IMG/VR virus record: IMGVR_UViG_3300016476_000412
Location: 1 to 58,839 of that record
DNA: 58,839 nt
Direction: 5' to 3' (one strand)
From: a virus
Taxonomy: Duplodnaviria; Caudoviricetes
In this document: piece by piece, positions 1 to 15,955 of the stretch
Numbering within the stretch: the first letter of the stretch is position 1
Layout: each line of letters starts with the position of its first letter
Position numbers and translations under genes: made by a program
Notes under the pieces: generated by a model
What the model was told of the DNA's origin: nothing
What the model saw: the letters and a program-made list of their open reading frames with translations, nothing else
Database searches by the model: none

Positions 1-18
1 GAGGTCAGTCAGTATCTG

Positions 19-210
19 ATGGCTGGCCCAGAGGGCTGGCCGGAACTTGTCCGTAGGATGTCCAAGCGGACTGAACTGGAGCGCGACCTCGCCTCTCTCC
101 GCCGGGCTGTCTACCAGTATCAGGGCTGTGTCGAGACCGACACGGTGCCCCACTTCACCTCTCACTACGAGATGACCTCGGCCCTTAACCGGATGCGGAA
201 GTATGGGTAA
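19..210 (+). CDS. Small early protein, possibly 5'-truncated by the window edge
   Basis: 63-aa ORF; the frame is open back to position 1; ends SALNRMRKYG (shared C-terminal motif). Confidence 0.6.
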   Translation: MAGPEGWPELVRRMSKRTELERDLASLRRAVYQYQGCVETDTVPHFTSHYEMTSALNRMRKYG

Positions 211-276
211 TGTCGAAACCGGGGATTGCTCCCCGGTCTGTCGTGGTTGGCTACCACGACACTGATGAGACAAGCC
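211..276 (+). ncRNA. Type II hammerhead ribozyme with loop I pseudoknot
   Basis: TGTC(211-214)/GACA(269-272) stem II; GAAA 215-218; stem III CCGGGGA/TCCCCGG; GUC cleavage triplet 236-238; stem I TGTCGTGGT/ACCACGACA; CTGATGA core 262-268; loop GGCT(249-252) complementary to AGCC(273-276). Confidence 0.93.
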
Positions 277-301
277 TCAACTTCAACACACAGGAAACAC
301 A

Positions 302-1294
302 ATGCGTCCTTCCCTTCTCTCTGACACCCTCATGTCCCTGATCCAGATCGGCCGTCCGGTCGTCATCGAGGGTGCACCGGGTGGTGGCAAGACCTCCCTT
401 GTCCGGTCCGTCGCTGCTGCCATGGGTCTGGGCTACATCGAGCGGCACTTGCCCACCATGCTGGTCGAGGACTTCGGCATCCCTGTCTTGGGGGGTGACA
501 CCCTGCGCTACGTCGTGCCGGACTGGTTCCCTGCCAAGGGGTCCAAGTATGACGACGGCATCGGTGGGGTGCTGTGCTTCGACGACCGGAACCAAGCCAA
601 CGCTGACCTCCAGAAGGTGCTGGCTAACATCCAAGAAGCCCGCAATCTCCACGGGGTGCCGATGGCTGATGGCTGGTCTGTCGTCTCCACTGGTAACAGG
701 CAGCAGGATCGTGCCGGGGCTAACCGTGTCCTGTCACACCTCGCTGACCGTGAGACCACCCTTGAGTGGGAGACCCACCTTGATGACTGGTCGTCGTGGG
801 CACTGACCAACGGGGTCCGACCCGAGGTCGTGGCCTTCATCCGCTTCCGTCCCGGTCTGCTCCATGACTTCGACCCGAACCGCAACAAGAACTCCACCCC
901 TCGTTCGTGGACCAACGGTGTCAGCGCCGTCCTTGGCACGGTCCCTGTCGAGGCTGAGTTCGACTGCTTCAAGGGTGCCGTCGGTGAGGGGGCTGCCGCG
1001 GAGTTCATCGGCTTCCTGAAAATCTACCGGAAGCTGCCCAACCCGGATGCTATCCTGATGACCCCTGACACGGCGGATGTCCCGACCGATCCGGCCACCC
1101 TCTATGCCCTGTCTGGTGCTATCGCCACCCGTATCTCCAACGCCAACATTGACCGGGCAATTACGTATCTTAAGCGTATACCAGCAGAGTTCTCTGTGCT
1201 ATGTATGAGCATGGCGGTGCGCCGCGACCCTATGGTGACGTCCACTAAGGGCTTCATCGACTGGAGCGTGGCCCACCAGAGCGTGTTGTTCTAA
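302..1294 (+). CDS. MoxR/CbbQ-like AAA+ ATPase
   Basis: Walker A GAPGGGKT, Walker B-like VLCFDDRNQ, sensor-1 STGN, LADR Arg finger, TPRSW sensor-2. Confidence 0.88.
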   Translation: MRPSLLSDTLMSLIQIGRPVVIEGAPGGGKTSLVRSVAAAMGLGYIERHLPTMLVEDFGIPVLGGDTLRYVVPDWFPAKGSKYDDGIGGVLCFDDRNQANADLQKVLANIQEARNLHGVPMADGWSVVSTGNRQQDRAGANRVLSHLADRETTLEWETHLDDWSSWALTNGVRPEVVAFIRFRPGLLHDFDPNRNKNSTPRSWTNGVSAVLGTVPVEAEFDCFKGAVGEGAAAEFIGFLKIYRKLPNPDAILMTPDTADVPTDPATLYALSGAIATRISNANIDRAITYLKRIPAEFSVLCMSMAVRRDPMVTSTKGFIDWSVAHQSVLF

Positions 1295-1305
1295 GAGGAA
1301 CTGAT

Positions 1306-1917
1306 ATGACCAGACGCATCGACATTTCCGGCCAGCGGTTCGGGAGGTTCACAGTATTAGGCCACGACACTGGCAAGAAGTGGCGGTGCGTCTGTGACTG
1401 CGGCACGGAAGTGGTTGTGGATAAGCAATCCTTACTGTCAGGGAGGAGTAAGTCCTGTGGCTGCTACCGAAGGGAGCACACAATCTCCGTGAGCACCAAG
1501 CATGGCATGACTGGCAAACCCGTGCACCATACGTGGAAGGGTATGCACCAGCGGTGCTACAACCCCAACGCCGGTAGTTACAAAGACTACGGAGCGAAGG
1601 GTGTGACTGTCTGTGAGCGGTGGCATAAATTCGAGAACTTCTACGCTGACATGGGCGACAAGCCCGATGGTTATTCCATAGACCGCATCGACCCGACTGG
1701 TAACTACGAGCCGAGTAACTGCCGGTGGGCCAGCAAGAAGGTGCAGTCCCGGAATAAGCGCAACAGTATACTGATCGACGGGGTGGCGCTCCGCTACCTC
1801 GCCGAAGAACTGAACATACCCTACACCACACTCTACGGCCGCATATGGAGGGCGAAGCAGCGGGCCGAAGAGGAAGGGACTAGGCTACCCACAACCACAC
1901 AGGGGGCGAAGGGATGA
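1306..1917 (+). CDS. Free-standing HNH (homing-type) endonuclease
   Basis: N-terminal GQRFGRFTV..WRCVCDCG..SKSCGC; RCYNPN..YG..GVTVCERW..F..F..DMG; SIDRIDPTGNYEPSNCRWA..Q.RN; C-terminal HTH-like segment. Confidence 0.85.
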   Translation: MTRRIDISGQRFGRFTVLGHDTGKKWRCVCDCGTEVVVDKQSLLSGRSKSCGCYRREHTISVSTKHGMTGKPVHHTWKGMHQRCYNPNAGSYKDYGAKGVTVCERWHKFENFYADMGDKPDGYSIDRIDPTGNYEPSNCRWASKKVQSRNKRNSILIDGVALRYLAEELNIPYTTLYGRIWRAKQRAEEEGTRLPTTTQGAKG

Positions 1918-2141
1918 CAGGCACCTTTGCCGGGTATCTAATCAAGATCAAGACCATCGACGGTTTTGGCGAGTTGGGCCGTCTGTCGAAGGAGTGGACG
2001 GAGTATCGGGACAGTCGTGACTGGACTGCCAAGATGCTCTCGTTCACGGACTATCTCAAACACAAGTTCCCTGAGCAGGCGATGGTCTACAAAACCTACT
2101 GTCGCCTGACTTCCTACCAACCAACCAACAAGGACACATGA
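1914..2141 (+). CDS. Hypothetical small early protein
   Basis: 75 aa, ATGA overlap with the HNH gene; contains VYKTYCRLTS motif. Confidence 0.7.
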   Translation: MTGTFAGYLIKIKTIDGFGELGRLSKEWTEYRDSRDWTAKMLSFTDYLKHKFPEQAMVYKTYCRLTSYQPTNKDT

Positions 2142-2142
2142 C

Positions 2143-3000
2143 ATGACCACACATCTCTCCGACCGCGCCCTGCTGGTGCAACTCAACATCTCCCAGTGGA
2201 CAGCCCGCAAGCTGGACAAGAAGGCCACCAAGGAGGTGGCTTACAGCAACGGCGCTGCCCGTGAGGCAGGGAACTACAACAAGAAGCTGTTGCCCATGTC
2301 GGACAGCCTCGCCAACATCCACACCATGACGGGCGACATCCGTCGGGAGTTCTATGCCAACACCCTGCCGTGGGGACTGGAGAACACCCACATGCTGCCG
2401 ACCGCGAACTACCTCAACTTCATGACCACCTTCCGCAAGCGGAAGTCGGAGTGGCAGGCTGTGGTGAACAAGTTCCTCACTGACTATCCCTACCTCCAGA
2501 CCAACGCTCAGCGGTTCCTCGGCAAGCTCTACGATCCGGCCGACTATCCCGATGTCAACGACCTGCGGCACAAGTTCAACATGGACCTCGTGGTCATGCC
2601 CGTCCCGACCAATGACTTCCGTGTCCAGCTTGCCGATGATGAACTGTCCACCATCCACGCTGACATCCAGCGCCGGGTCGAACAGTCGTCCGGTCTGGCT
2701 ATGAAAGAGGCTTGGCAGCGCCTTTACGACCATGTTAAGTTGATGTCCGAGCGGCTGGGTAACATGGAGGGTCGGCTCTATGACAGCCTGTTCGACAACG
2801 CCATCGAACTGTGCCGCATCCTGCCGCGCCTCAACTTCACCGATGACCCCCACCTTGAAGCGATGCGGACCGAGGTGGAGACCAAGCTGGTGGGTCACAG
2901 CAAGGAAGCTATCAAGGGCAGCCCGGTGCTTCGCAAACAGGTGGCTGACGAGGCTGCCGACATCATGGCCCGTATGGGTGCTTTCATGGGAGGGGTGTGA
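2143..3000 (+). CDS. Conserved helical phage protein (DUF3150-like)
   Basis: 285 aa with SD and strong codon bias; resembles proteins usually found beside MoxR AAA/VWA pairs; family call from memory. Confidence 0.55.
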   Translation: MTTHLSDRALLVQLNISQWTARKLDKKATKEVAYSNGAAREAGNYNKKLLPMSDSLANIHTMTGDIRREFYANTLPWGLENTHMLPTANYLNFMTTFRKRKSEWQAVVNKFLTDYPYLQTNAQRFLGKLYDPADYPDVNDLRHKFNMDLVVMPVPTNDFRVQLADDELSTIHADIQRRVEQSSGLAMKEAWQRLYDHVKLMSERLGNMEGRLYDSLFDNAIELCRILPRLNFTDDPHLEAMRTEVETKLVGHSKEAIKGSPVLRKQVADEAADIMARMGAFMGGV

Positions 3001-3001
3001 G

Positions 3002-3445
3002 ATGGGGTATCGCAGCGACGTGGCCATCGGCATGTCGTTCAAGAACAGGGAGGCGCTCGTCGCCTTCCTGTCGGCTGTCCGGTTGGGTGACGCTATACCG
3101 TCTGAGGAACTCGATCAATACGAGGTGACCGATGCGGGGGAGTTGGGTGTCCTGCTTCACGCCAACTTCTTGGGTGTCAAGTGGTATGACAGCTACCCCG
3201 ATGTGAAGTGTCACCATAACCTGTTGGACATGGCGAGGGAGCGCGGTGCAGGCACGGCGTTCATCCGCATCGGGGAGGAATATAACGACATCACCTATGA
3301 GATCGACATGGCCGACGTTGACCTCGATCTATATGACTTCTTCGGTGTCAGCCGTCAGGTTACCTATCCCGAGGATGGCACCGCTATCGCAGACTACATG
3401 AAGGACACGACATGTCAGACATCTACAGCAACATCGACGAGATGA
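3002..3445 (+). CDS. Hypothetical protein (MGYRSDV... type)
   Basis: ATG at 3002 just after the previous stop, GGAGG SD; KWYDSYPDV and FIRIGEE motifs. Confidence 0.75.
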   Translation: MGYRSDVAIGMSFKNREALVAFLSAVRLGDAIPSEELDQYEVTDAGELGVLLHANFLGVKWYDSYPDVKCHHNLLDMARERGAGTAFIRIGEEYNDITYEIDMADVDLDLYDFFGVSRQVTYPEDGTAIADYMKDTTCQTSTATSTR

Positions 3446-3741
3446 TCGACCTGTGTGGTCGCAAGATCGAGTTGCTCCGGCAACTAAAGAAGGGACTGAT
3501 GCTGGCAGAGATGATCGGCATCCCTGCCAAGGACATCAAGGGGAAGCTGTCGCATGGTGTCACCAGCTACGGCACCCCGCTATACGCCAGACCATGGAAG
3601 ACGGAGGAGTTCGTTGTCCGTCTCGATGGTGAGGAGGTGTATAGGAAGAAGTTGATCGACGTGCCGCAGGATTTCTGGCCCGTCGAAGTGCTTGCCGAGT
3701 ATAAGCGTTACGTTAAGCGCACTCAGAAACCCAAGGAGTAA
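3412..3741 (+). CDS. Hypothetical protein
   Basis: 109 aa, AAGGA SD, fills operon gap. Confidence 0.7.
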   Translation: MSDIYSNIDEMIDLCGRKIELLRQLKKGLMLAEMIGIPAKDIKGKLSHGVTSYGTPLYARPWKTEEFVVRLDGEEVYRKKLIDVPQDFWPVEVLAEYKRYVKRTQKPKE

Positions 3742-3746
3742 CACAC

Positions 3747-4874
3747 ATGCAGTCCATGGAAACCCTCAAGACCCGCCTCGCCAAGGCCAAGACCAGCCTC
3801 GTGCTGGAGCACCCCTTCGTCGGCACCATCGCTCTGGGTATGCCGCACACCTACTCCGACGCCGTGCCCACCGCTGCCACCAATGGCAAACGTGTGCTCT
3901 ACAATCCCAAGTTCGTGTCCGATCTGACCGACGAGGAACTCAAGTTCCTTGTGGCCCACGAGTGTATGCACCCCATGCTGGAGCATAACTTCCGCCGTCA
4001 GTCCCGCGAACCCAAGAAGTGGAACATGGCTGCCGACTATGTCATCAACCAGCTTCTGACTGACGAGGGCATCGGCAAGTTCATCGAAGGCGGCTGCCTC
4101 AACAAGGCGCTCTACGACGCCGGACAGGGTGTGTCCGAGCAAATCTACACCCTGCTGCCCGATCAGGACGGCGACGGTGAGGGCAACGGTCCCGGCGGCA
4201 CTGGTCAGGACCTTGAGGACGGCGAAGGCACCGCCTCTGAGCAGGCTGCACAGGCTGCCGAGTGGAAGGTCAAGGTGGCGCAGGCTGCACAGGCTGCCAA
4301 GATGATGGGTAAACTGTCGGCTGGCATGGCCCGCCTTGTCGATGACATCCTCAACCCCACCGTGGACTGGCGTGATGTGCTCATGCGCTTCGTCGTCAAG
4401 CACAAGACCGATGACCGCAGCTTCTCCCGCCCCAACCGTCGCTTCCTGTCGCAGGGCCTCTACATGCCGAGCCGCAGCGGGGAACGGATGGGTCCGATTG
4501 CCTTCCTCGTGGACTGCTCCGGCTCTGTCGATGACGAGCAGCTTGCCCAGATGGCAGCCGAGGTTCGCATGGTGCACGAGGACTTGCATCCTGAGAAGTT
4601 GCACGTCGTATACTTCGACGCCGAGGTCACGCACTACGACTGCTTCCTGCCGGATGACACTGTGCAGATCAGCTTCCACGGTGGCGGTGGCACCGATGTC
4701 CGTGCTGCCTTCGACTACCTCGATGCGCAGGGTATCTCCGAGACGCTGGCTTGCACCATCGTGCTGACCGACGGCTACACCCCCTACCCCGACGGGTTCA
4801 ACACCCCGGTGATCTGGGCCATGACCACTGACATGAACGCCCCGTTCGGTGAGCACTGCCGGGTCAAGGTGTGA
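3747..4874 (+). CDS. Putative metallopeptidase plus VWA-like domain protein (DUF2201-like)
   Basis: TAATNG, HExxH (AHECMH), WNMAADYVIN; C-terminal MIDAS DCSGS, GGGGTD, VLTDGY. Confidence 0.88.
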   Translation: MQSMETLKTRLAKAKTSLVLEHPFVGTIALGMPHTYSDAVPTAATNGKRVLYNPKFVSDLTDEELKFLVAHECMHPMLEHNFRRQSREPKKWNMAADYVINQLLTDEGIGKFIEGGCLNKALYDAGQGVSEQIYTLLPDQDGDGEGNGPGGTGQDLEDGEGTASEQAAQAAEWKVKVAQAAQAAKMMGKLSAGMARLVDDILNPTVDWRDVLMRFVVKHKTDDRSFSRPNRRFLSQGLYMPSRSGERMGPIAFLVDCSGSVDDEQLAQMAAEVRMVHEDLHPEKLHVVYFDAEVTHYDCFLPDDTVQISFHGGGGTDVRAAFDYLDAQGISETLACTIVLTDGYTPYPDGFNTPVIWAMTTDMNAPFGEHCRVKV

Positions 4875-4875
4875 C

Positions 4876-5136
4876 ATGGAGGATCAGCGCACAGTTCCCT
4901 TCGCAGGCACCCCGCTCAAGGCGGGGTGCGCCCTTGTCGCCCAAGACTGGGAGAACACCGCCAACGTCTGGGTTGTCGATGCGGTGGGTGAGAACGGCAC
5001 GGTCATGTGCCACTGTCCCTTCGATACCACTCGCGCCGATACCTTTATATTCACCCCGTCCGACAAAGAGTGGATCGGTCCCGATGTGCAGTCGGTGCTG
5101 TCCTACCTCAAGCTGATGGGGATCAGAGCACGATGA
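4876..5136 (+). CDS. Hypothetical small early protein
   Basis: ATG 4876 right after the VWA gene stop; ends VLSYLKLMGIRAR. Confidence 0.65.
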   Translation: MEDQRTVPFAGTPLKAGCALVAQDWENTANVWVVDAVGENGTVMCHCPFDTTRADTFIFTPSDKEWIGPDVQSVLSYLKLMGIRAR

Positions 5137-5444
5137 CACGCAACGCAAGACGGACCGCCACCCCGTGGCGGCGGCGCTACATGGTGCAGACATGGCCGCA
5201 TCGGCACAGATTTGAGGTCGTGCTTGTCAGGGGTCGGGCGAAGCGGACACCCGATGGCAACCACAAGATCATGGTCAAGACCAACGCCCAGAAGTGGGAG
5301 TGGTATACCGTGTCTGGCTATGCGGACTTCGATCATCCACGGCGCAAGTTCTACAAAGCGGAGGAACAGGGCGAGATGCTGGCTTACATCGCCGCCCTTC
5401 GGATGCAGGGTCACACCCTTATCGGAACGGTGCCGTCATGGTAG
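5133..5444 (+). CDS. Hypothetical small early protein
   Basis: ATGA overlap at 5133-5136; contains LAYIAALRMQG. Confidence 0.65.
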   Translation: MTRNARRTATPWRRRYMVQTWPHRHRFEVVLVRGRAKRTPDGNHKIMVKTNAQKWEWYTVSGYADFDHPRRKFYKAEEQGEMLAYIAALRMQGHTLIGTVPSW

Positions 5445-5734
5445 ACTTCCCTGAGGGCTATGGCTTTGCGCCGGGACAGAAGGCGAGGGTCATGCAGGAC
5501 AGCTTCGCCGCTCTCGTCGGTGTGTTCACCGTCGAGAGTCACTTCCCATACAACAAGCGGCGCAGTCGTTCGCCCTACACATTCAAGGAGATAGGGGCGG
5601 TGCAGAAGGAGGCCGGGAACCCCACGATCCGTGGTATCCTGCTTGGTAAGGACGACACGCCCGTCATCGAAGGCACATTGCAGCAAGTCGTGACTGCCTT
5701 GTGCACATTACATCGCATCAGAGGAGGTAAGTAG
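5438..5734 (+). CDS. Hypothetical small early protein
   Basis: ATG 5438 overlaps the previous stop; ends TALCTLHRIRGGK. Confidence 0.65.
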   Translation: MVDFPEGYGFAPGQKARVMQDSFAALVGVFTVESHFPYNKRRSRSPYTFKEIGAVQKEAGNPTIRGILLGKDDTPVIEGTLQQVVTALCTLHRIRGGK

Positions 5735-5991
5735 TGGACCCGTCTATCGTCGTAGCTATGCTTGCACTGATCGTAGCCGGTTGTTATATTGTGTTCCTAC
5801 ATCATCAGTTGGTGGATGCGGAGCAAGCCTGCGAAGAAGCAGAGGAAGCACTTGAGGCAGCGGATAACGCTGTCACTATGTATCAACAAGTTCTCACCGA
5901 CGTAGCATACAAACAAGCAACTCTTGAGGTTCTCCCCAATGGACAGATCGTCGCAACAAAACTCGCTGATCGAGAAGTATCGCTACATTAA
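5734..5991 (+). CDS. Membrane-anchored coiled-coil protein
   Basis: GGAGGT SD, GTG start; hydrophobic N-terminal helix followed by an acidic Ala/Glu coiled coil. Confidence 0.65.
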   Translation: MDPSIVVAMLALIVAGCYIVFLHHQLVDAEQACEEAEEALEAADNAVTMYQQVLTDVAYKQATLEVLPNGQIVATKLADREVSLH

Positions 5992-6547
5992 CGTCGAGTT
6001 CCACGACTGGTGGCAAGACGTATACTCCGAGTTCACGGAGGACATGAAGGAAGTCGGCATTGCTGTAGAGCGCATGTATTTCTCCGGCTTCTGTTCGCAG
6101 GGTGACGGTGCCTGCTTTGTCGGGTGCTTCGGTAACACCCGCACCTACCTTGACAAGCACCACGTCGATCAGTTCCCCATGATCCGCAAGCTGTTGGATC
6201 ACGGCGGCGATGTGTATGCGACCAGCAGACATAGCGGGCACTACTACCACAGCCACAGCACCACCATCATACTAGAGGGTGACGCCTTCTACAACTGCAT
6301 CGAGTCCAAGTCCGAGTTGCAGGACAAGGTCATCGAACAGTGGGACGAGTTGCTTCTCAAGGAGATGTCTGACCTTGAGACTGCCGTCACCGACCAGTGG
6401 CGGGCATACATGGACGAACTCTATGACAGGCTGGAGAAGGAGTATGAATACCTGACGAGTGACGATGCGGTGTGGGCAACCATCGAAGCAAACGAACTGG
6501 AGGAAGAAGTGGATGATGACGAGGATGATTATGATCGAGCCGCCTAA
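5939..6547 (+). CDS. Highly acidic conserved phage protein
   Basis: GAGGT SD; DWW..VY..F, FSGFCSQGDGACF, LY..LEKEYEYLTSD motifs; D/E-rich tail. Confidence 0.75.
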   Translation: MDRSSQQNSLIEKYRYINVEFHDWWQDVYSEFTEDMKEVGIAVERMYFSGFCSQGDGACFVGCFGNTRTYLDKHHVDQFPMIRKLLDHGGDVYATSRHSGHYYHSHSTTIILEGDAFYNCIESKSELQDKVIEQWDELLLKEMSDLETAVTDQWRAYMDELYDRLEKEYEYLTSDDAVWATIEANELEEEVDDDEDDYDRAA

Positions 6548-6806
6548 GATACTGGCAGTATGCGACATGTGCTGGGAACATAACCAAGAGGCGTCGTGTT
6601 TCCCAATCAAGGACATCATGTGGTCCAACATGCACAGCAAGTGGCTCTGTGATTGTTGTTGGGAGGAGCATGACTACGATGATGCTGAGGTGGTAAATGA
6701 TCTGCCACCACGGGTTGATGCCTATGCCAGTGATGTCGTGGACAACTACGAAACTATGAAGCAACGGCTGATCGTTGCCATGACAGCAAGGCGTTTGGGA
6801 GTATAA
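6531..6806 (+). CDS. Small Cys-rich (zinc-finger-like) protein
   Basis: GAGG SD; CDMC...CDCC; ends VAMTARRLGV. Confidence 0.65.
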   Translation: MIEPPKILAVCDMCWEHNQEASCFPIKDIMWSNMHSKWLCDCCWEEHDYDDAEVVNDLPPRVDAYASDVVDNYETMKQRLIVAMTARRLGV

Positions 6807-6809
6807 CAC

Positions 6810-7595
6810 ATGACACAGATCACTACCTACAAGCAGGCCGAGGAGTTCTTTGCCAAGGCCCGCAAGAAGGACGCAGGTCGTCCGCTCGGTGTCGTCGGAT
6901 GGCGGTTGTTCTGCAACGACGATATCTACAGCATCAACTACAACGACAAGACGTTCGCCACCATCCACCCCAACAACCACCTCGTGTTGACGGGTGTCGA
7001 TGTGTCTAACGGCATGGTCATCGGCGCGTCCAAGGTGCTGCCCATCATGGTCGTGTATCGTTCGACCGACAACTATCGGGTGCATATCCGTAGGGCAGGT
7101 AAGGCGAAGAACACATACGGTGCCTATGGTCTCACCAGCTTTCGTGACTGGCGCACTGGCGGGCTGCGCTACATCAAGAACCTGACCATCAACCTGACCA
7201 ACCGTCAGTCGGTGGACTATGTGGAACCTGTGCGGACGGTGGACACCGACGCCCGCAAGCAGTGGCTGCGTGACAGCGACCGTGTGAAGAAGCACCTCAA
7301 GACCATCGTCAAGTTGGGTGGGTTTGTCCCCCTGCTGGAGGCGCTGCCCAACCTCCGCTGGCAATACCGCACCATTAACTGCCAGCCGGACTCGCCTGAC
7401 CTGAACATCATGCTGACCGCCCTTGCTGGCGGTGACATGCAGCCCCTTGTGCAGCGGGTGGCAGAGCACATGCGCCGTTCGTCCTACACCAACCCCCCCG
7501 ACACCGAGTTCCAGCTTGGTGTCATCGACGCCATCTTCACCAACAATAGCGTTGCCCTGCGCCGTGCGCTGGGCGTCATCACTTCGGAAGTATGA
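6810..7595 (+). CDS. Hypothetical protein
   Basis: 261 aa, GGAG SD, genome-typical codon usage. Confidence 0.75.
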   Translation: MTQITTYKQAEEFFAKARKKDAGRPLGVVGWRLFCNDDIYSINYNDKTFATIHPNNHLVLTGVDVSNGMVIGASKVLPIMVVYRSTDNYRVHIRRAGKAKNTYGAYGLTSFRDWRTGGLRYIKNLTINLTNRQSVDYVEPVRTVDTDARKQWLRDSDRVKKHLKTIVKLGGFVPLLEALPNLRWQYRTINCQPDSPDLNIMLTALAGGDMQPLVQRVAEHMRRSSYTNPPDTEFQLGVIDAIFTNNSVALRRALGVITSEV

Positions 7596-8158: not shown

Positions 8159-8159
8159 C

Positions 8160-8375
8160 ATGGAATACTGGACCATCATGTGGATCACGGTGCTGAGCGG
8201 GTATCTGGACGGCTCCATCGTGGCCGTGCCGTATGAGACCTTGGCGCAGTGCGAGGCTGCGTTGCAGTCTGTCAGCAACACGCTGCCCTATGACCACAAC
8301 ATGATCTGCGAGGAGACACCGACGCCGTCCAAGTCGATGCGTCCGAAGCCCCGGCCGGAGGGACTAGGCGAATGA
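8160..8375 (+). CDS. Small exported or membrane protein
   Basis: Hydrophobic N-terminus, two Cys, C-terminal SMRPKPRP. Confidence 0.65.
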   Translation: MEYWTIMWITVLSGYLDGSIVAVPYETLAQCEAALQSVSNTLPYDHNMICEETPTPSKSMRPKPRPEGLGE

Positions 8376-9025: not shown

Positions 9026-9339
9026 TGACCAACGGGTCGGAATTGAAATCACCCGGTGCCATGGCACTGAGGGCGGCAGGGTTCAAACCCTGCCCCCGAT
9101 GGTGGCTGACTGAGGAACAGCTGGAACTGGTGGAATACATGGCCCGGCAGAACGAGACCGAGGTCAATCGGATCAGAGGTGAGGCGAACAGGTATGGACG
9201 ACGCATGGAAGGGCGAGGGGTTGATCCGCGGGCAGAAACCCAACGGCAACCGGAAGGAGGCAACCAAGCTGGTGAACGTGATCTACCACGCCCAGCGCAG
9301 GAAGGAGGGGGTTCCCACGGCAGGGGCGAAGAAGCATAA
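9025..9339 (+). CDS. Hypothetical protein
   Basis: TAATG coupling; the 3' third overlaps the next ORF. Confidence 0.55.
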   Translation: MTNGSELKSPGAMALRAAGFKPCPRWWLTEEQLELVEYMARQNETEVNRIRGEANRYGRRMEGRGVDPRAETQRQPEGGNQAGERDLPRPAQEGGGSHGRGEEA

Positions 9340-9382
9340 TGGCATGATGAAGGGCGTGTTCGCCGAGGTCAGCAAGCCGTGA
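9194..9382 (+). CDS. Small basic hypothetical protein
   Basis: ATG 9194, 62 aa, GTGA coupling with the next ORF. Confidence 0.45.
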   Translation: MDDAWKGEGLIRGQKPNGNRKEATKLVNVIYHAQRRKEGVPTAGAKKHNGMMKGVFAEVSKP

Positions 9383-9606
9383 AGCGCGTAGTTCTCAAAC
9401 CCCTGCACACCAAGGTGACGGGCGACTTGCCACGCATGATGCGCGTGTCCCTGCCCTGCGAACCGTGGGAGAAGGCGGATGAACCAGAACCTGATCCTAC
9501 TCTTGAACCTAAGGAAAAGATTGCGGGAACGGATAAGGACAAGCGGCGTGGGCACCGCTCACCCCGACATCTCGGCCCTTATACTCGCCGTAGAACAGAC
9601 GACTGA
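9379..9606 (+). CDS. Hypothetical protein
   Basis: GAGGT SD, GTG start, 75 aa. Confidence 0.5.
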   Translation: MKRVVLKPLHTKVTGDLPRMMRVSLPCEPWEKADEPEPDPTLEPKEKIAGTDKDKRRGHRSPRHLGPYTRRRTDD

Positions 9607-9617
9607 TAGGCTGCTAC

Positions 9618-9920
9618 ATGAAACCGACACCCCGCGAACAGCACCTCCGCAACGAGGTGGGCCAACTGACCCACCGCATCCATGAGATGATCGCCGAACG
9701 GAAGGCGATGCACTCCGACCTTGTCGCCCAACGTGCGGACATGACCACCGCACTGCACCTGCTGGAGATTGGCACGGTGAGGGACGCCATCCAAGTTCTC
9801 AGAGACGCACTCGCACACAGGGAGAGGAACCGTGAGAAGCGCAAGTCCCGCACTGGAGAAGGCGCTGGCCCGCATGTCGGACCGGCACCTGCAAGCCCTG
9901 CACCGGATCGCCAAGGATAA
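9618..9920 (+). CDS. Coiled-coil hypothetical protein
   Basis: 100 aa helical ORF. Confidence 0.5.
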   Translation: MKPTPREQHLRNEVGQLTHRIHEMIAERKAMHSDLVAQRADMTTALHLLEIGTVRDAIQVLRDALAHRERNREKRKSRTGEGAGPHVGPAPASPAPDRQG

Positions 9921-9999
9921 GGAGAAGGGGCTGCGCCCCTTCTTCACCGACGTCCACAACATGATCGCCTTGCGGAAGGCAGCGGAGAAGAAGGCATGA
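9832..9999 (+). CDS. Small basic protein not in the ORF track (55 aa)
   Basis: GGAGAGG SD, GTG start, MRSASPALEKALARMSDRHLQ...KAAEKKA, ATGA coupling to the 9996 gene. Confidence 0.55.
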   Translation: MRSASPALEKALARMSDRHLQALHRIAKDKEKGLRPFFTDVHNMIALRKAAEKKA

Positions 10000-10334
10000 C
10001 CAAGGACCTGACCGAGGGTGTGAAGTTCGACGGCGACAAGCTGCGCTACGACCTGATCCCGCCCGAACTGCTGGAGCAGACCGCCCTCGTGCTGACCTAT
10101 GGTGCGCACAAGTATAGCGCACGCAACTGGGAGAAGGGCATGAAGTGGGGGCGCTGCTTCGGCGCACTCATGCGTCACATGTGGGCGTGGTGGTGGGGCG
10201 AGGACCGTGACCCGGAGACTGGCTACTCCCACCTGTCCCATGCTGCCTGCTGCATTGCGTTCTTGATTGCATATGAACATCGTTGTATAGGTGAGGATGA
10301 TCGCAACAAGCTGGGAGGCAGCAGTGATGGATGA
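9996..10334 (+). CDS. dATP/dGTP diphosphohydrolase-domain protein (DUF5664-like)
   Basis: GVKFDGDKLRYDLIP..VLTYGA.KY..RNWEKG..ALMRH..W..GED.DPETG.SHL.HAACC. Confidence 0.85.
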   Translation: MTKDLTEGVKFDGDKLRYDLIPPELLEQTALVLTYGAHKYSARNWEKGMKWGRCFGALMRHMWAWWWGEDRDPETGYSHLSHAACCIAFLIAYEHRCIGEDDRNKLGGSSDG

Positions 10335-10635
10335 CCACTACGGTGCTACGGATGCGTTTGTGAAAGCATACGCATCGCGCAGTGTAGGGATGGAGGAAAT
10401 CCGTAAGAGTTCTTACATGGATAGCGCCACTTACGCCATGAAGGTAGCTGCGGAGATGGACTCGCGTGTCGTGGGTGAGGTGACGCACCAAGCTATACGC
10501 CATCTTGCAAACAAGTGCAGCATGGCAGAGACCGAACTGTTGGACTTCATCAAGTTCTTGCGCAACGACCCCGAAATCGCCGACCGCTATACTGCATACA
10601 AAACAGCGCGCCGTCTGCGCGGGGAGAGTGTATAA
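10327..10635 (+). CDS. Hypothetical small protein
   Basis: GGAGG SD; ends YTAYKTARRLRGESV. Confidence 0.7.
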   Translation: MDDHYGATDAFVKAYASRSVGMEEIRKSSYMDSATYAMKVAAEMDSRVVGEVTHQAIRHLANKCSMAETELLDFIKFLRNDPEIADRYTAYKTARRLRGESV

Positions 10636-12512
10636 TGGACATCGTTACTATCGACTTCGAGACCTACTACGACAAGGACTACTCCCTGTCGAAGATCACA
10701 ACCGAAGCATACATCCGTGACCCTCGCTTCGAAGTGATCGGTGTGGGTGTCAAGGTGAACGACGGACCCGTCGATACCTACAGCGGGGATGATGCTGGCA
10801 AGTTCCTCAAGTCGCTGGACTACAGCGACAAGGCCATCCTCTGCCACAACACCGTGTTCGACGGGGCCATCCTGTCGTGGAAGTACAAGATCAAACCGCG
10901 CTTCTGGCTGGACACCCTGTCCATGGCCCGCCCCCTCCATCAGTCCACCGTGGGCGGCAGCCTCAAGGCGCTGGCCCAGCACTACGGGCTGGGGGAGAAG
11001 GGCGAGGAAGTGGTGGCTGCACTGGGCAAGCGGCGCAGGGACTTCACCCCGGCCGACCTTGCCCAGTACATGCGCTACTGTGCGAACGACATCGAACTGA
11101 CCTATGCCCTGTTCAAGAAGTTGAAGAAGGGTTTCCCGCTCGACGAGTTGCGGATCATCGACACCACGCTGCGGATGTATACCGAGCCGATGGTGGAACT
11201 GGACGAGGAACTGCTGGAGGATCACCTCGCCCGTGTCGTTGCGTCCAAGCTGGCGCTGCTGGACAGTCTCGGTGGCAAGGGCAAGGACATCCTCATGTCC
11301 AACGACAAGTTCGCCAAGCTGCTCAAGCGGCGGGGTGTGGACGTGCCGATGAAGGTCAGCCCCGCCACGGGTAAGGAGACCTATGCCTTTGCCAAGACGG
11401 ACCTGCCCTTCCTCGCCCTGCAAGAACACCCCGACCCTGTGGTGCAGACGCTCGTGGCTGCGCGGCTGGGCCTCAAGTCCACGCTGGAAGAAACCCGCAC
11501 CAAGGCGCTGATCGGTGTGTCCCAGCGGGGGCGGTTGCCCATCATGCTGAATTACTACGGGGCGCACACCGGGCGCTTCTCTGGGGGCGACAAGCTGAAC
11601 CTCCAGAACCTGCCCAGCCGTGGTGACAACACCATCCGTCGCGCCCTCTGCGCCCCGCCGGGGTATAAGATCATCAGCTGCGACAGCAGTCAGATCGAAG
11701 CCCGCATGGTGGCCTACCTCGCTGGTCAGTCTGATCTGGTGCAGCAGTTCCGTGAGAACCGGGACGTGTATTCGGAGTTCGCCTCCGATGTCTACAACCG
11801 CAAGATCACCAAGGCCGACAAGGTGGAGCGCTTCGTCGGCAAGACCTGCATCCTCGGGCTGGGCTACATGACTGGCGCACCGAAGCTGCGGGACACCCTC
11901 AAGCGGGGGCAGGGTGACATCTCTGTGGACCTGACGCCGGAGGAAGCCACCGACATCGTGAACATCTACCGCCGCAAGAACCACAACATCGTCAAGCTGT
12001 GGGCCGAGTGCGGCTACGCCCTGTCCAACATGATCGCTGGACGCAAGGGGCAGATCGGCACCCTGCTGACCTATGACCCCGATGGTATCCTGCTGCCCAA
12101 CGGGATGAAGCTGCGCTACCACGGGCTGTCGGCCAACGACCGCAAGTTCTTCTACATCTCTGACAAGCGCATGTTTGACAGAGCGATGAAGGCGCGGCTG
12201 GAGGGCAGCAAGGCGAACGTGGGTGAGGGTCTGGTCCCCGGCCAGTCCCACCTCTACGGTGGCAAGGTGACGGAGAACGTGGTGCAGGCGCTGGCCCGCA
12301 TCGTGGTGGCTGGGCAGATGCTGGCTATCCATGACGCTGGCTACCACGTCGCCTTCCAAGTGCACGACGAGAACGTCTGCATCGTGCCCGAAGATCAGGC
12401 CGAGCAGGCACAGAAGGACATCGTGGCCATCATGTCCACCGCACCGTCGTGGGCACCCGACCTGCCCGTCGCCTGTGAGGCTGGCATGGCCGACACCTAT
12501 GGAGATGCGTGA
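10635..12512 (+). CDS. Family A DNA polymerase with 3'-5' exonuclease domain
   Basis: ExoI DFETYY, ExoII HN..FD, ExoIII YCAND; TGRFSG, NLQNLP, motif A DSSQIEAR, motif B KTCILGLGY, motif C QVHDE; TAATG start at 10635. Confidence 0.95.
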   Translation: MDIVTIDFETYYDKDYSLSKITTEAYIRDPRFEVIGVGVKVNDGPVDTYSGDDAGKFLKSLDYSDKAILCHNTVFDGAILSWKYKIKPRFWLDTLSMARPLHQSTVGGSLKALAQHYGLGEKGEEVVAALGKRRRDFTPADLAQYMRYCANDIELTYALFKKLKKGFPLDELRIIDTTLRMYTEPMVELDEELLEDHLARVVASKLALLDSLGGKGKDILMSNDKFAKLLKRRGVDVPMKVSPATGKETYAFAKTDLPFLALQEHPDPVVQTLVAARLGLKSTLEETRTKALIGVSQRGRLPIMLNYYGAHTGRFSGGDKLNLQNLPSRGDNTIRRALCAPPGYKIISCDSSQIEARMVAYLAGQSDLVQQFRENRDVYSEFASDVYNRKITKADKVERFVGKTCILGLGYMTGAPKLRDTLKRGQGDISVDLTPEEATDIVNIYRRKNHNIVKLWAECGYALSNMIAGRKGQIGTLLTYDPDGILLPNGMKLRYHGLSANDRKFFYISDKRMFDRAMKARLEGSKANVGEGLVPGQSHLYGGKVTENVVQALARIVVAGQMLAIHDAGYHVAFQVHDENVCIVPEDQAEQAQKDIVAIMSTAPSWAPDLPVACEAGMADTYGDA

Positions 12513-13183
12513 TGACCGTTAAACTCGCCCACTCGTACACCGCCCTCAAGATGTACGAGAACTGCCCGAAGCGCTACTACCACCAGCGCATCACCAAGGA
12601 AGTCGTGGACCAGCCGGGGACGGCGACGGTCTACGGTGAGCGGGTGCACAAGCAGTTGGAGGAATACCTCAAGGCCCCGGCGACGGGGCTGCCCGCCGAG
12701 ACGGCGGCGCTCCAGCCCCTGTGCGACAGCGTGATGAAGGGTGTCGATGGTGGCGGGATGCTGCTGATCGAGCAGGAGTACACCCTGACCAGCGACCTCA
12801 AGCCGACCACATGGTTCGCGCCGGACGCATGGCTGCGCTTCAAGCTGGACGTGCTGGCCATCCGGGGGAACAACACGGCCATGGTCGTGGACTGGAAAAC
12901 TGGGAAGCGCCGCCCCGACTTCGATCAGTTGGAGATGTTCGCCCTTGCGGTGTTCAGCTTCTGGCCGTCGATCCGCAAGGTCTCGTCCATGTTCGTCTGG
13001 ACCAAGGAGAACGCCATCGACAAGGAGACCTACCGGGTCGAGCACAAGGACGAGATGTGGACCCGGCTGCTGACCCGCATCCACCGGGTGGAGAAGTCCT
13101 TGGAGACGGACAACTGGCCTGCCAAACCCAGCGGGCTGTGCAAGTTCTGCCCGTGCCGGGAGTTCTGTGAGTTCGCCGCTTGA
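12512..13183 (+). CDS. PD-(D/E)XK Cas4/RecB-like exonuclease
   Basis: SYT..YENCPKRY, G..VH..LE, KLD..VVDWKTGK, QL..F, C-terminal CKFCPC..C (four-Cys cluster). Confidence 0.88.
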   Translation: MTVKLAHSYTALKMYENCPKRYYHQRITKEVVDQPGTATVYGERVHKQLEEYLKAPATGLPAETAALQPLCDSVMKGVDGGGMLLIEQEYTLTSDLKPTTWFAPDAWLRFKLDVLAIRGNNTAMVVDWKTGKRRPDFDQLEMFALAVFSFWPSIRKVSSMFVWTKENAIDKETYRVEHKDEMWTRLLTRIHRVEKSLETDNWPAKPSGLCKFCPCREFCEFAA

Positions 13184-13206
13184 CCGGCAACGAGTGAGGT
13201 GACACG

Positions 13207-13527
13207 ATGGCTACTCCAGAGGGCCGCATCAAAGCGGGGCTGGACCGGATGTTGAAGGCAGAGCGGGTGTGGTTTTACCCCCCGCAGGCCGGACCATTTG
13301 GTAGTGCTGGCATCCCTGACCGGGTTGCCATCGTGTCAGGCATCTTCGTCGGCATCGAATGTAAAGCTGACGCCACCAAGAAACCGACCGCCTTGCAGCT
13401 AAAGTGCATGGCGGACATCGAGGCTGCGGGTGGCAAGTGTTTCGTCGTCTACGACAAGGCAACCATCGAGCATGTGAGGGAGTGGATACATGCTTGTCGT
13501 CGAGTCCGCGAGGGCAGTAGCCCTTAA
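13207..13527 (+). CDS. VRR-NUC domain nuclease
   Basis: TPEGRIK, GIPD, FVGIECKA, PTALQ, AAGG..FVV. Confidence 0.88.
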   Translation: MATPEGRIKAGLDRMLKAERVWFYPPQAGPFGSAGIPDRVAIVSGIFVGIECKADATKKPTALQLKCMADIEAAGGKCFVVYDKATIEHVREWIHACRRVREGSSP

Positions 13528-15040
13528 ACTGAACGACCCCAACCGGGTCTTGGAGTGTATCCCCAAGGCGCGGCAGCTTCCGTCTGACCCTCGTATCGTC
13601 GTCGTGCCCCACCGGGTGCGTGAGATGCAGCGACTCAAGGAACTGGGGTTCAATCCGCCGTCGCCCATCGGCTACCAGTATGACTGGCCCGGGCGCTTCA
13701 CGCCGTTCGATCACCAGAAAACGACGGCCGACTTCCTTACTCTGCACAAGCGCTGCCTTGTGCTGAACTCCATCGGCACGGGCAAGACCGTCAGTTCCCT
13801 GTGGGCTGCGGACTACCTGATGAACGCCGGGCTGGTGAAGAAGGTGCTGATCCTGTCGCCCCTGTCCACACTGGAGCGGGTGTGGGGTGACGCCATCTTC
13901 AAGGAGTTCTACCACCGCAAGTCCGTCACCCTCTATGGCGATGCGAAGCGCAGGCTCAAGCTGCTCAAGACCGAGGCCGACTTCTACATCATCAACCACG
14001 ATGGCTTCCCGATCATCGCCAAGGAAGCGCTGGACATGTTCGACCTTGTCATCATCGACGAGGCGGCAGTCTACCGGAACCCATCGACCAAGAGGTTCAA
14101 GCAGTTCTACCGCTGGCTCCAAGTCCAGCCCAACCTGCGCCTGTGGCTGATGACCGGGACGCCGACCCCCAACGAGCCGACCGACGCATGGGCGCTGGCG
14201 AAGCTGGTGGACAGCCCGCACATGGCCAAGACCTACACCGCCTTCCGCGAACAGGTCATGACCAAGATCGGCCAGTGGAAGTTCGTGCCCCGACCGGACA
14301 GCGTGGACATCGTGAAGCATGTGCTCCAGCCCTCCATCCGCTTCACCCGGGAGGAATGTCTGGACCTACCGGACACCATCACGCAGACCCGCAAGGTGGA
14401 GATGACGCCGGAGCAGTCGAAGCACTTCAAGCAGATGGTCAAACAGCTTGTGACCGAGGCTGCGGGCGGCACGATCACCGCCGTGAACGAGGCGGTGAAG
14501 GCGCAGAAGCTGATCCAGATTGCCCTTGGCGTGGCCTATGGCGAGAACGGGGAACTGATCGAACTGGACTGCGCACCCCGCATCACCGCCGTGAAGGAGG
14601 TGATCGAGGAAGCGGGCGAGAAGGTGATCCTGTTCGTCCCCCTGACTGGCACCCTGCGGATGCTGGAGCGTGAACTGTCGAAGCACTGGACGGTGGGTGT
14701 GGTGAACGGTGAGGTGTCGTCTGCGAAGCGCAATGACATCTTCCATAACTTCCAGAACGCGCGTGACCCGCACATCCTGCTTGCACATCCTGCGACGATG
14801 GCGCACGGTTTGACCTTGACAGCAGCGTCAACCGTCGTATGGTATGGTCCTATCACCAGTAACGAACAGTATGTTCAGGCCAATGGTCGTGTAGAACGTA
14901 TCGGCAAGAAGCATGTGTCGAACGTCGTACACATTGAAGCAACCGAGGTTGAGCATCGCATCTACGAACGTCTGCGTAACAAGCAGAAGCTGCAAGGTGT
15001 GTTGCTTGATCTGATAGCCCAGATGGGAAGGGTAAGATGA
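13490..15040 (+). CDS. SNF2-like superfamily 2 helicase
   Basis: PFDHQ, GTGKT, DEAA, MTGTP, HGLTL, QANGRVERIG. Confidence 0.92.
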   Translation: MLVVESARAVALKLNDPNRVLECIPKARQLPSDPRIVVVPHRVREMQRLKELGFNPPSPIGYQYDWPGRFTPFDHQKTTADFLTLHKRCLVLNSIGTGKTVSSLWAADYLMNAGLVKKVLILSPLSTLERVWGDAIFKEFYHRKSVTLYGDAKRRLKLLKTEADFYIINHDGFPIIAKEALDMFDLVIIDEAAVYRNPSTKRFKQFYRWLQVQPNLRLWLMTGTPTPNEPTDAWALAKLVDSPHMAKTYTAFREQVMTKIGQWKFVPRPDSVDIVKHVLQPSIRFTREECLDLPDTITQTRKVEMTPEQSKHFKQMVKQLVTEAAGGTITAVNEAVKAQKLIQIALGVAYGENGELIELDCAPRITAVKEVIEEAGEKVILFVPLTGTLRMLERELSKHWTVGVVNGEVSSAKRNDIFHNFQNARDPHILLAHPATMAHGLTLTAASTVVWYGPITSNEQYVQANGRVERIGKKHVSNVVHIEATEVEHRIYERLRNKQKLQGVLLDLIAQMGRVR

Positions 15041-15264
15041 CGTTTGTGATCGAGAAGAACGTGCCGCTGCCGGAGAAGAACATCCGGTGGAAGTACCCGT
15101 TCGATCAGATGGAAGTTGGTGACAGCTTCTTCGTTGCGAACAAGGAGAGCACCCAGATGTCGGCGCTGTGCAAGCGCGCTGGCAAACGGCTGGAAGCCCG
15201 CTTCGTGACGGCGAAGGCTGAGACCAACGACGCCAAGGGCGTCCGGGTCTGGAGGGTCGAATGA
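15037..15264 (+). CDS. Small conserved putative DNA-binding protein
   Basis: IEKNVPLP..KYPF..MEVGDSFFV..GVRVWRV. Confidence 0.7.
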   Translation: MTFVIEKNVPLPEKNIRWKYPFDQMEVGDSFFVANKESTQMSALCKRAGKRLEARFVTAKAETNDAKGVRVWRVE

Positions 15265-15662
15265 GCCTCACAGTCGAGCAGGTGGTAGGCACCTACATGA
15301 AACTTCGCCGCAAGAAGGAAGCGGTGGAACAGCAGGTCAAGGACGAGGTCGCCGACATCAAGGCGAAGATGACCAAGCTGGAGTCGTGGCTGATGCAGAA
15401 AGCGGACGAGGATGGCGTCACGTCGTTCAAGACCGCCGCCGGTACGGCCTTCATCACCACGACCGACTTCGCCAACGTGGCTGACTGGGACGCTGTGCTG
15501 AACTTCATCAAGGAGAACGAGGCGTTCGACATGCTGGAGAAGCGGGTGTCCAAGTCCGCGGTCAAGGCGCTGCTGGACGAGACGGGCGAGGTTCCGCCCG
15601 GCATCACCTACGGCACCAAGATCGGGATCAACGTGCGCAAGCCGACTGGCGGTGACGAATGA
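15261..15662 (+). CDS. Conserved coiled-coil replication-module protein (Gam-like, tentative)
   Basis: N-terminal coiled coil, DWD, LEKRVSK, PPGI motifs. Confidence 0.6.
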   Translation: MSLTVEQVVGTYMKLRRKKEAVEQQVKDEVADIKAKMTKLESWLMQKADEDGVTSFKTAAGTAFITTTDFANVADWDAVLNFIKENEAFDMLEKRVSKSAVKALLDETGEVPPGITYGTKIGINVRKPTGGDE

Positions 15663-15955
15663 GCAACATCTTCCGTCGCCTGTTCACTTCCGTGGTGCAC
15701 GTCAAGAACGGTCAGGTCAGTGTGGAGACTGCCCCCTCGGGTGAGGGTAGCGCCAACCAAGTTCTGAACATGCTCTCGCACTGGGAGAACAAGCAGAACC
15801 TGTCGGTCGTGCCGATCAACAACGGCTTCCTGATCTGCACCCGGGTCTACAACCCGAACGGGCCGGACTACGTCGAGGCGACCCATGTCGCCGATGTCGA
15901 GACCCTCGGTACTACCATCGTTGCCCAACTGGCTGCGATGCGCCTCAAGAAATAA
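15659..15955 (+). CDS. Hypothetical protein
   Basis: ATGA coupling; ends AQLAAMRLKK. Confidence 0.7.
   Translation: MSNIFRRLFTSVVHVKNGQVSVETAPSGEGSANQVLNMLSHWENKQNLSVVPINNGFLICTRVYNPNGPDYVEATHVADVETLGTTIVAQLAAMRLKK

Follow-up and report, generated by a model that had tools for sequence, protein, structure and literature searches.

A candidate C-terminal docking helix shared by small early proteins of a tailed phage that encodes a MoxR-like ATPase and a VWA-peptidase

Introduction

The adaptor SspB carries a C-terminal ClpX-binding peptide, which docks the adaptor on this AAA+ machine. In midasin (Rea1), an AAA ATPase is combined with a MIDAS domain that binds UBL domains, and an acidic residue of the client docks on the MIDAS metal. 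Ubiquitin and ubiquitin-like proteins end in the sequence LRLRGG. Here, these systems are compared with a virus genome of the Caudoviricetes, the IMG/VR record IMGVR_UViG_3300016476_000412 (positions 1-58,839); the term window denotes this whole stretch of 58,839 bp and not a single feature in it. The subject of the analysis is a helix at the C-terminus of small proteins from the early region of the window, which also encodes a MoxR-like AAA ATPase and a protein with a HExxH metallopeptidase and a VWA-like domain. A previous inspection of the letters and open reading frames (ORFs), in the following termed the sequence-only reading, had proposed that eight unrelated small early proteins share a C-terminal tag, which lets them dock on one partner such as the AAA/VWA complex or a host hub, or marks them for cleavage, conjugation or turnover.

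Pairs of genes for a MoxR-like ATPase and a VWA or VWA-peptidase protein are common in phages. For jumbo phages, a MoxR-vWA pair has been described in which the VWA protein has an N-terminal metallopeptidase, and a role in virion assembly with proteolytic processing was proposed (Iyer et al., 2021; PMC7824862). The window is similar to this pair, as described in the accessible parts of that publication, since it encodes an AAA_5 ATPase together with DUF2201_N (HExxH) and DUF2201 VWA-like domains. It differs in the location of the genes, which lie among early and replication genes, and in the candidate clients, which are small early and not structural proteins; a client-docking motif is not described in the same parts of the publication. 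In the accessible parts of the literature on phage MoxR/VWA pairs, virion assembly was the only role proposed and no tested function was found. Likewise, no description of such a tail tag was found in the accessible parts of the literature on these pairs or on shared C-terminal motifs.

The arrangement in the window would resemble SspB-type adaptors in that a short C-terminal peptide or helix behind a variable linker brings diverse cargo to one AAA+ partner. However, the ATPase of the window is MoxR-like and not a Clp protein, and the modelled site consists of the C-terminal helices of the ATPase and not of an N-domain. There is no sequence likeness between the SspB peptide and the tails of the window, the function of which is a prediction. 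As in midasin, a dynein-related AAA_5 ATPase would work with a VWA/MIDAS module to hold clients; unlike in midasin, the model of the window sets a basic helix on the C-terminus of the ATPase.

In the reading favoured here, the tails form a shared C-terminal docking helix for the MoxR-like AAA/VWA-peptidase machine, and docking was modelled for one of the proteins, ORF5438. The probability of this reading is estimated to be roughly 0.45. If it is true, the helix names the clients of the machine, and tail peptides and Arg mutants become a handle on its function; docking would also account for one short conserved end in small early proteins that otherwise evolve fast. If the co-fold does not generalise to the other carriers, the result would be a lineage-specific habit of C-terminal helices and of minor interest.

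The tail helix and its conservation

All eight tail peptides reported by the sequence-only reading were located in the sequence at the described places (Table 1), and the residue classes were found as reported. Counted from an anchor R or K (position 0), position -3 is T, A or S and position +1 is L, M or I in 8 of 8 tails. A Gly follows at +2 or +3 in five of them (ORF4876, ORF5133, ORF5438, ORF6531 and ORF10327), and Tyr occupies position -5 in three. The resulting pattern [TAS]xx[RK][LMI] is present once per protein, at the tail, in all eight. In addition to the positions noted earlier, Ala was found to be the most frequent residue at position -6 across the families. The distance between the motif and the C-terminus ranges between 3 and 13 residues.

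Six of the eight carriers lie inside the first 7 kb of the window, which agrees with the reported clustering. The codons of the motif vary from site to site. A DNA repeat as the source of the tails, which the sequence-only reading had denied as well, is ruled out by this differing codon use.

The remaining parts of the eight proteins had been called unrelated, and this was confirmed by profile comparison with hhalign, in which the highest probability among 28 family pairs was 4%. The motif register was recovered in 10 of the 28 top alignments, a count that was judged by eye from the coordinates and is biased by the choice of the eight proteins. A search of Pfam and PHROGs for known families gave no match with E < 0.004 and none above a curated cut-off for the eight ORFs. 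Two weak long BLAST alignments end in the tails, between ORF15659 and ORF4876 (E = 0.076, 58 amino acids (aa)) and between ORF15659 and ORF6531 (E = 0.46, 75 aa), so hidden paralogy is possible for some of the eight.

The description as eight small proteins holds for seven, but not for ORF19, which is the truncated end of a larger protein. Starting at base 1 of the window, its sequence corresponds to residues 201-269 in an alignment with a homolog of 269 aa (homologs have 254-269 aa), and the window contains the last 63-69 residues of the gene. The anchor Arg of ORF19 is replaced by A, S and S in its orthologs (3 of 3), whereas MRK[YH]G is kept (KKRWG in one), and the family is negative for the [TAS]xx[RK][LMI] pattern. 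The missing 200 codons of this gene are absent from the right end of the window too. Therefore, the record, which is classed as linear and rated 100% complete, either lacks sequence or is cut within the gene.

In the orthologs of the other seven families, the tail helix including positions -3, 0 and +1 is kept at overall identities of 33-66%. The orthologs of ORF1914 retain Y-x-[AT]-Y-x-R-[LV], and three families of distant relatives (f101, f185 and f186) have similar tails in the slot after the AAA gene, as ORF1914 does. SVLTYLRLTG is retained in the single ortholog of ORF4876, EM..Y...LRM[QD]G in five orthologs of ORF5133 (four distinct tails), A-x-[TA]-[AK]-[KR]-R-[LM]-G-V in those of ORF6531 and TA[YWH][KR]TA[RK]RLRG in those of ORF10327. 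For ORF15659, which has 3 database relatives only, eight distinct ortholog tails retain [LI][VI]A[EQK][LM][AT]..R[LI][TK]K. The 86 database homologs of ORF5438 are best conserved in the first 12 residues (information 4.09) and in the tail IEGTLQQVVTALCTLHRMRG (3.89). Conservation of the motif positions in homologs, a point on which the sequence-only reading depended, was thus found in 7 of 8 families, the anchor of ORF19 being the exception.

In ORF5438, ORF6531 and a further family of the relatives (f6, see below), the conserved helix is preceded by an indel-rich, variable stretch. No fused form of ORF5438 was found among longer proteins, which is weak evidence.

Two relatives (L085 and L089) show a frame matching ORF10327 whose first residues resemble the end of the dGTP_diPhyd_N gene upstream. 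In these relatives, the two may be a gene fusion or be read as a single frame.

Enrichment of the tail in related phages

The tails were compared across 160 related loci obtained from two IMG/VR scans with the VWA gene and the helicase as queries. Only genes on the + strand were called, resulting in 2,213 proteins in 255 families. The gene caller missed 4 of 32 hand-listed genes of the window, which were added by hand; the ambiguous coding stretches 9025-9830, 36944-38214 and 57449-58536 of the window gave no proteins to the analyses. As an outside control, 55 loci at the polymerase of L5-like actinophages were used (1,742 proteins in 237 families with a median length of 70 aa).

The pattern was identified in at least half of the distinct tails in 31 of the 255 families, 7 of which are those originally noted, while the internal density predicts a rate of about 5.6% per tail. 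In the actinophage control, it marks about 7 of the 237 families. The difference between the related group and the control is significant with all families (Fisher, p = 8e-5) and without the eight training families (p = 0.0026).

A matrix built from the eight tails was applied to the 247 other families. It gave 6.2 matches per 1000 positions in the last seven windows of the proteins and 0.79 per 1000 inside them, an enrichment of about 8-fold. With 100 column-permuted matrices, the mean tail count was 1.9 and the highest 6.4, compared to 10.8 observed, whereas internal counts were equal; the actinophage control gave 2.3 tail matches with the unpermuted matrix. At the level of sequence comparison, the related genomes show both the conservation of such a C-terminal helix and its specific enrichment in this group of phages.

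A clear independent case of the tail is family f6 with 90 members of about 220 aa, 70 of which are at or above the matrix threshold. Its C-terminus consists of a variable Lys-rich linker followed by [LM]TA.V...K[LI]T[KR]. With hhalign, no relation of f6 to proteins of the window was found, and a search of the phage collection gave no protein match.

The gene of f6 (e.g. L134:221-913 and 89 other loci) precedes the ORF6810 homolog in the more distant relatives, and the window has no copy of it. The family is weakly similar to Nmad5 (25.5 bits vs. a cut-off of 27). According to the accessible part of one study, a single Lys-to-Glu change in nmad5 of a Dhillonvirus leads to escape from the Tmn defence (PMC11846954); no link between f6 and the Dhillonvirus nmad5 product was established.

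Modelled docking on the ATPase and the VWA/peptidase

The ATPase was assigned to the MoxR-like AAA_5 group by a Pfam match of 25.4 bits (cut-off 22) over residues 19-150. Its Walker A motif (G24-x-P26-G27-G28-G29-K30-T31) is invariant in 28 sequences, as are the C-terminal residues V299, S303, R307, F318, L329 and F330. The VWA/peptidase matches DUF2201_N (E = 2.7e-51, 175.2 bits) and DUF2201 (E = 1.8e-20, 73.7 bits), both above the cut-off, and H71, E72 and H75 of its HExxH motif are invariant in 36 sequences. The ATPase matches 600 phage records, and the best matches from cultured phages are at most 32% identical. The co-occurrence of motif and ATPase had been suggested as a check. In a search of 22 related records, the ATPase gene was found in all 22, hence this check does not discriminate within the group.

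A co-fold was calculated for three chains, the ATPase (alignment of 28 sequences), the VWA/peptidase (36) and ORF5438 (86), the latter being the scored partner. The scores were 0.72, 0.69 and 0.67, the best of 3 controls reached 0.01, and the passing mark was reached. The runs share at least 96% of contacts, and the predicted local distance difference test score (pLDDT) of the partner is at least 77. In these models, ORF5438 makes confident contacts with residues 5-6, 72, 74-79, 83-84, 86-87, 89-91 and 93-97, and its interface is the motif helix including positions -6, -3, 0 and +1. The tail contacts residues 299-330 of the ATPase (the last two helices; about nt 1196-1291) and residues 20-21, 187 and 189 of the VWA protein. 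The lowest errors were found for S322 of the ATPase with T90 (-3), T86 (-7) and A87 (-6), and for L329 with the anchor R93. The co-fold supports binding without showing it. Since the ATPase profile matches the Protein Data Bank (PDB) around Walker A only (midasin and p97-type ATPases, midasin being the best match), it is unlikely that the co-fold passed by reproducing a solved complex.

The VWA/peptidase contains an Ala-rich helix at residues ~171-189 with invariant positions (W173...A178 Q179 A180 Q182 A184 K185 M186 K189). This helix is itself tail-like (matrix score 7.6) and includes the residues 187 and 189 contacted in the model.

Seven small early proteins of the window and further families in its relatives end in a helix of 14-18 residues with the consensus h-h-x-A-h-x-[T/A]-[A]-x-[R/K]-[L/M/I]-x-[G/K]. 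In the proposed mechanism, this helix would seat its carrier on the MoxR-like AAA+ ATPase that the phage itself encodes. The single model available places the face of small residues (-7/-6 and -3/-2) against the last two helices of the ATPase (299-330), with the anchor Arg adjoining the last two residues, L329 and F330, as well as Leu20 of the metallopeptidase-VWA protein. Each carrier would thereby bring its family-specific N-terminal domain to the common AAA/VWA-peptidase machine, in the role of a client, a regulator or an adaptor. It is inferred that the other tails use the site modelled for ORF5438 and that the machine acts on the carriers.

A more far-reaching version of this mechanism appears very doubtful at present. 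The small early proteins could be interchangeable adaptors, in which each variable N-terminal domain grabs a different host protein (e.g. a component of a defence system) and the common tail plugs into the ATPase/VWA-metallopeptidase, so that the target is remodelled or cleaved. If true, this would be a phage-encoded, modular form of targeted proteolysis and a new way to aim one enzyme at many targets.

Evidence against docking and alternative explanations

Several results weigh against the docking reading and are considered together here. The window by itself is not sufficient to establish the motif. Within the last 17 aa, [TAS]xx[RK][LMI] was found in 8 of 32 early proteins, where 1.5 are expected, and in 1 of the 34 others, with a nominal p = 1e-4. 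As the motif was defined after inspection, all three-position residue-class motifs in 60 shuffled and 60 internal-window sets served as the null. For the actual tails, the best class motif was [LM]xx[LIVM]R (7 observed vs. 0.55 expected, p = 1e-6), and motifs at least as extreme occurred in 7 of the 60 shuffled and 6 of the 60 internal-window sets. The median best p of the null sets was 8e-6, which is stronger than the 1e-4 of the motif originally noted. Once corrected for the choice of the motif, significance is lost in the window alone (p about 0.1).

A motif-blind test (best ungapped BLOSUM window over all tail pairs) resulted in p = 0.04-0.10, and tails of late genes scored equally. In leave-one-family-out profiles, the true sites ranked 7, 9, 12, 16, 33, 115, 166 and 578 of 17,212 positions and were top within their own protein in 7 of 8 cases; these profiles are selection-biased and carry little weight. 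A motif finder based on expectation maximisation was rejected as uninformative because it overfitted, with the fraction of assigned sites approaching 1 (p = 0-0.075 vs. shuffles and 0.075-0.45 vs. internal windows, 40 replicates each). Enrichment over background C-termini, on which the sequence-only reading depended, was seen across the related phage group but not in the window alone: the strings it listed are real, yet within the window they are no proof of a motif.

The signal of the group has a weakness of its own. Many of the additional positive families occupy the gene slots of the originally noted ORFs, which are those following the ATPase gene, those following the VWA gene and those preceding the ORF6810 homolog. 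Because of this, part of the enrichment may be due to the same proteins diverged beyond the reach of BLAST, which would be non-independent cases.

The structural model has limits as well. Modelling of the tails with candidate partners, as suggested by the sequence-only reading, gave a pass for ORF5438 (0.69 vs. 0.01 for the best control), and the co-fold covers this one of the eight carriers. Among solved complexes, 58 of 80 attain the passing mark, as do 2 of 110 mismatched pairs; this calibration is only rough here because own alignments and three chains were used. When the VWA chain was swapped and ORF5438 and the ATPase were kept, the score was 0.00 and the pLDDT of the partner 51, so the model depends on the VWA chain or is fragile. 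The conservation of the ATPase interface is not above that of the rest (6 of 17 positions invariant vs. 95 of 330 overall), and in a test of the helix face, the cross-family information was equal at interface and non-interface positions (p = 0.44). The AF2 monomer model of ORF5438 (pLDDT 76.5) consists of four strands and a helix at residues 81-94. This helix is placed confidently (block pLDDT 83-89) beside the four-stranded sheet and could be a plain structural helix. A search of the PDB gave no match to the ORF5438 fold at E <= 0.001 (best E = 1.1).

The main alternative is judged unlikely. According to it, the tails are ordinary C-terminal helices that pack on their own core with the small residues inward and Arg and Gly as caps, and the similarity results from some old paralogs, the constraint of ribosome binding sites and selection after the fact. 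It is in line with the weak statistics of the window, the confident monomer helix, the long alignments of ORF15659 that include the tails, and the shared slots of the positive families. ORF4876, ORF5133 and ORF5438 are moreover arranged in tandem and similar in size, and the Gly codons overlap a Shine-Dalgarno sequence in 3-4 of 5 cases (clear for ORF5438, ORF6531 and ORF10327, marginal for ORF4876). On the other hand, hhalign detected no homology among the 28 pairs, and the carriers look unlike each other: ORF6531 is Cys-rich, ORF10327 and ORF1914 appear helical by eye, and ORF5438 was modelled as sheet plus helix. Several further results speak against plain structural helices, namely the absence of tail enrichment in the 237 control families of small phage proteins, the failure of column-permuted profiles to reproduce the enrichment, the occurrence of the tail in the unrelated family f6 of 220 aa, and the passed co-fold with the tail as interface. 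A role of the tail in membrane targeting and a reading as helix capping were considered as well and set aside.

The Rhizobium phage RHph_TM3_14A, which keeps the gene order and encodes homologs of the ATPase (26% identical) and the VWA protein (32%), provides a further argument against docking on the ATPase. Only 2 of its 51 annotated tails on the + strand match the pattern, which corresponds to chance level. This phage retains AAA and VWA without the motif, which would suit a different kind of partner: the tail could be a genuine docking or oligomerisation helix that binds a host hub, another core protein of the phage or its own copies (dimerisation). The motif conservation and C-terminal enrichment are also consistent with such a partner, and two of the carriers, ORF10327 and ORF15659, are encoded at a distance of 5-11 kb from AAA and VWA. 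The co-fold with AAA and VWA passed, however, with controls near zero, and this explanation is given a small chance. The proposal that a common tag docks diverse proteins on the AAA/VWA complex is partly supported: it gains from the ORF5438 co-fold, the conservation in orthologs and the C-terminal enrichment, and loses from the control with the swapped VWA chain, from ORF19, from the unconserved likeness to ubiquitin and from RHph_TM3_14A.

Other tails were observed in distant phages that carry the ATPase. Three ORFs of RHph_TM3_14A (L218; 17349-19374 and 10107-10686) have the tails ...LLRG, ...LLIG and ...LLGDE, another two behind its ATPase gene have D.LLMA..[FW][VI] at the end, and a weak alignment (E = 0.029) joins the ends of RH17349 and RH18655. 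In pVa5, a Vibrio phage of the N4-like type (L219; NC_049379, 258-12853), about 7 of 21 ORFs around the ATPase have, by eye, an acidic LLED-like tail (ALLDV, LILMED, ELLEDK, DLLSDD, MELME, DLLEDE and ALLEDV), which is preceded by a KAK..F..[RK]M helix in four cases; 2 ORFs in this region match [TAS]xx[RK][LMI]. These tails, judged by eye, hint at lineage-specific shared tails as a wider habit of such phages. Other phages with the ATPase may thus carry their own versions of the tag.

Tail glycines and possible roles in cleavage or conjugation

Two further functions of the tail were considered. In the first, the HExxH peptidase would recognise the tail or cut it after the Gly, or the tail would be a degron that sets the time of turnover of early proteins, with the ATPase acting as unfoldase. 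The position of the modelled tail between the ATPase and the N-terminal peptidase domain, where it contacts VWA residues 20-21, and the invariant HExxH are compatible with this function. So are the homologs of ORF5438, in which a Gly at +3 (85 of 86) is followed by a short, variable stub, 3 residues long in 72 of 86. However, the Gly is missing in ORF1914 and ORF15659 and located at +5 in ORF19, the motif does not lie at a fixed distance from the end, and the Gly may be retained for the ribosome binding site downstream. A signal of this type is considered very unlikely.

Conjugation through a C-terminal Gly-Gly, as in ubiquitin, is close to refuted. The likeness to the ubiquitin end, which the sequence-only reading mentioned as a possible coincidence, consists of R-h-R-G-G (RIRGG) in ORF5438 and R-L-R-G in ORF10327. 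Unlike in ubiquitin, the GG is not conserved: it is found in 11 of 86 homologs of ORF5438 and in none of the other seven tails. In ORF5438, the RGGK codons form the AGGAGG ribosome binding site located 6 nt upstream of the GTG of the next gene, which explains the RGG and removes the likeness to ubiquitin. No E1, E2 or JAB family, and no conjugation gene, was found in Pfam scans of 28 early proteins (late genes were outside the scan).

Gene content of the window

Bases 1-20433 of the window contain early and replication genes on the + strand, and the remainder consists mostly of late genes on the - strand, as determined by codon-position GC content and a codon model. The features discussed are listed in Table 1. 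No close cultured relative was found, as bases 1-16000 gave no nucleotide match in the phage collection; the DNA polymerase shares 37-38% identity with its counterparts in Rhizobium phage RHph_TM3_14A and Pseudomonas phage KPP25.

Table 1. Location of the tail-bearing proteins and of other genes in the early region of the window.
Feature	Position	Strand	Remark
ORF19, 3' end of gene cut by the left end of the record	1-210	+	tail region (-8..+3) nt 166-201
MoxR-like AAA_5 ATPase, 330 aa	302-1294	+	Pfam AAA_5
HNH endonuclease	1306-1917	+	PHROG 374, E = 1.5e-71
ORF1914, 75 aa	1914-2141	+	motif nt 2079-2114, VYKTYCRLTS
Conserved core protein, 285 aa, between AAA and VWA genes	2143-3000	+	weakly DUF3150-like
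HExxH metallopeptidase and VWA-like protein, 375 aa	3747-4874	+	Pfam DUF2201_N, DUF2201
ORF4876, 86 aa	4876-5136	+	motif nt 5086-5121, VLSYLKLMG
ORF5133, 103 aa	5133-5444	+	motif nt 5376-5411, AYIAALRMQG, 13 residues from end
ORF5438, 98 aa	5438-5734	+	motif nt 5690-5725, ALCTLHRIRG
ORF6531, 91 aa, Cys-rich N-terminus	6531-6806	+	motif nt 6768-6803, VAMTARRLGV
dGTP_diPhyd_N protein	9996-10334	+	Pfam
ORF10327, 102 aa	10327-10635	+	motif nt 10588-10623, AYKTARRLRG
Family A DNA polymerase	10635-12512	+	
PD-(D/E)XK nuclease	12509-13183	+	Pfam
SNF2-type helicase	13490-15040	+	name from annotation of RHph homolog
ORF15659, 98 aa	15659-15955	+	motif nt 15917-15952, AQLAAMRLKK
Acb2/Tad1-hairpin protein, 77 aa	15977-16210	+	PF24729, E = 2.2e-13, 50.6 bits vs. 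cut-off 27
Primase/helicase	17560-20433	+	

For the core protein between the AAA and VWA genes, the label DUF3150-like given by the sequence-only reading was not confirmed at the Pfam threshold; the protein of the window has no match to PF11348 at E <= 0.1. In its family, 15 of 34 members match DUF3150 weakly, the best E of 0.0019 being below the curated level. The AF2 model of this protein has a pLDDT of 71.6 and a predicted template modelling score of 0.46, and it gave no PDB match at E <= 0.001.

The C-terminal helix of the core protein is a near-match to the motif (A..IMARMG, with Ile at -3), and the tail, A..IM.[KR]MG.FMGG, is kept in its family of 62. Similar near-matches are S..LR..[FL]GV in the protein encoded at 6810-7595 (+; family of 109) and HACRRVREG at 13207-13527 (+), in the subgroup of the VRR-NUC family to which the window belongs.

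The HNH endonuclease gene lies between the ATPase gene and ORF1914 and has the look of a mobile insertion. In the region 9025-9830 (+), the overlapping ORFs 9025-9339, 9379-9606 and 9618-9920 have a weak third-position GC content of 0.58-0.68, compared to 0.84 at 9179-9382 and 9832-9999. One ORF of 2,529 aa on the - strand (20430-28019) has good coding statistics, and no identity was assigned to it. The Acb2/Tad1-hairpin protein downstream of ORF15659 is a candidate sponge for cyclic-nucleotide defence signals.

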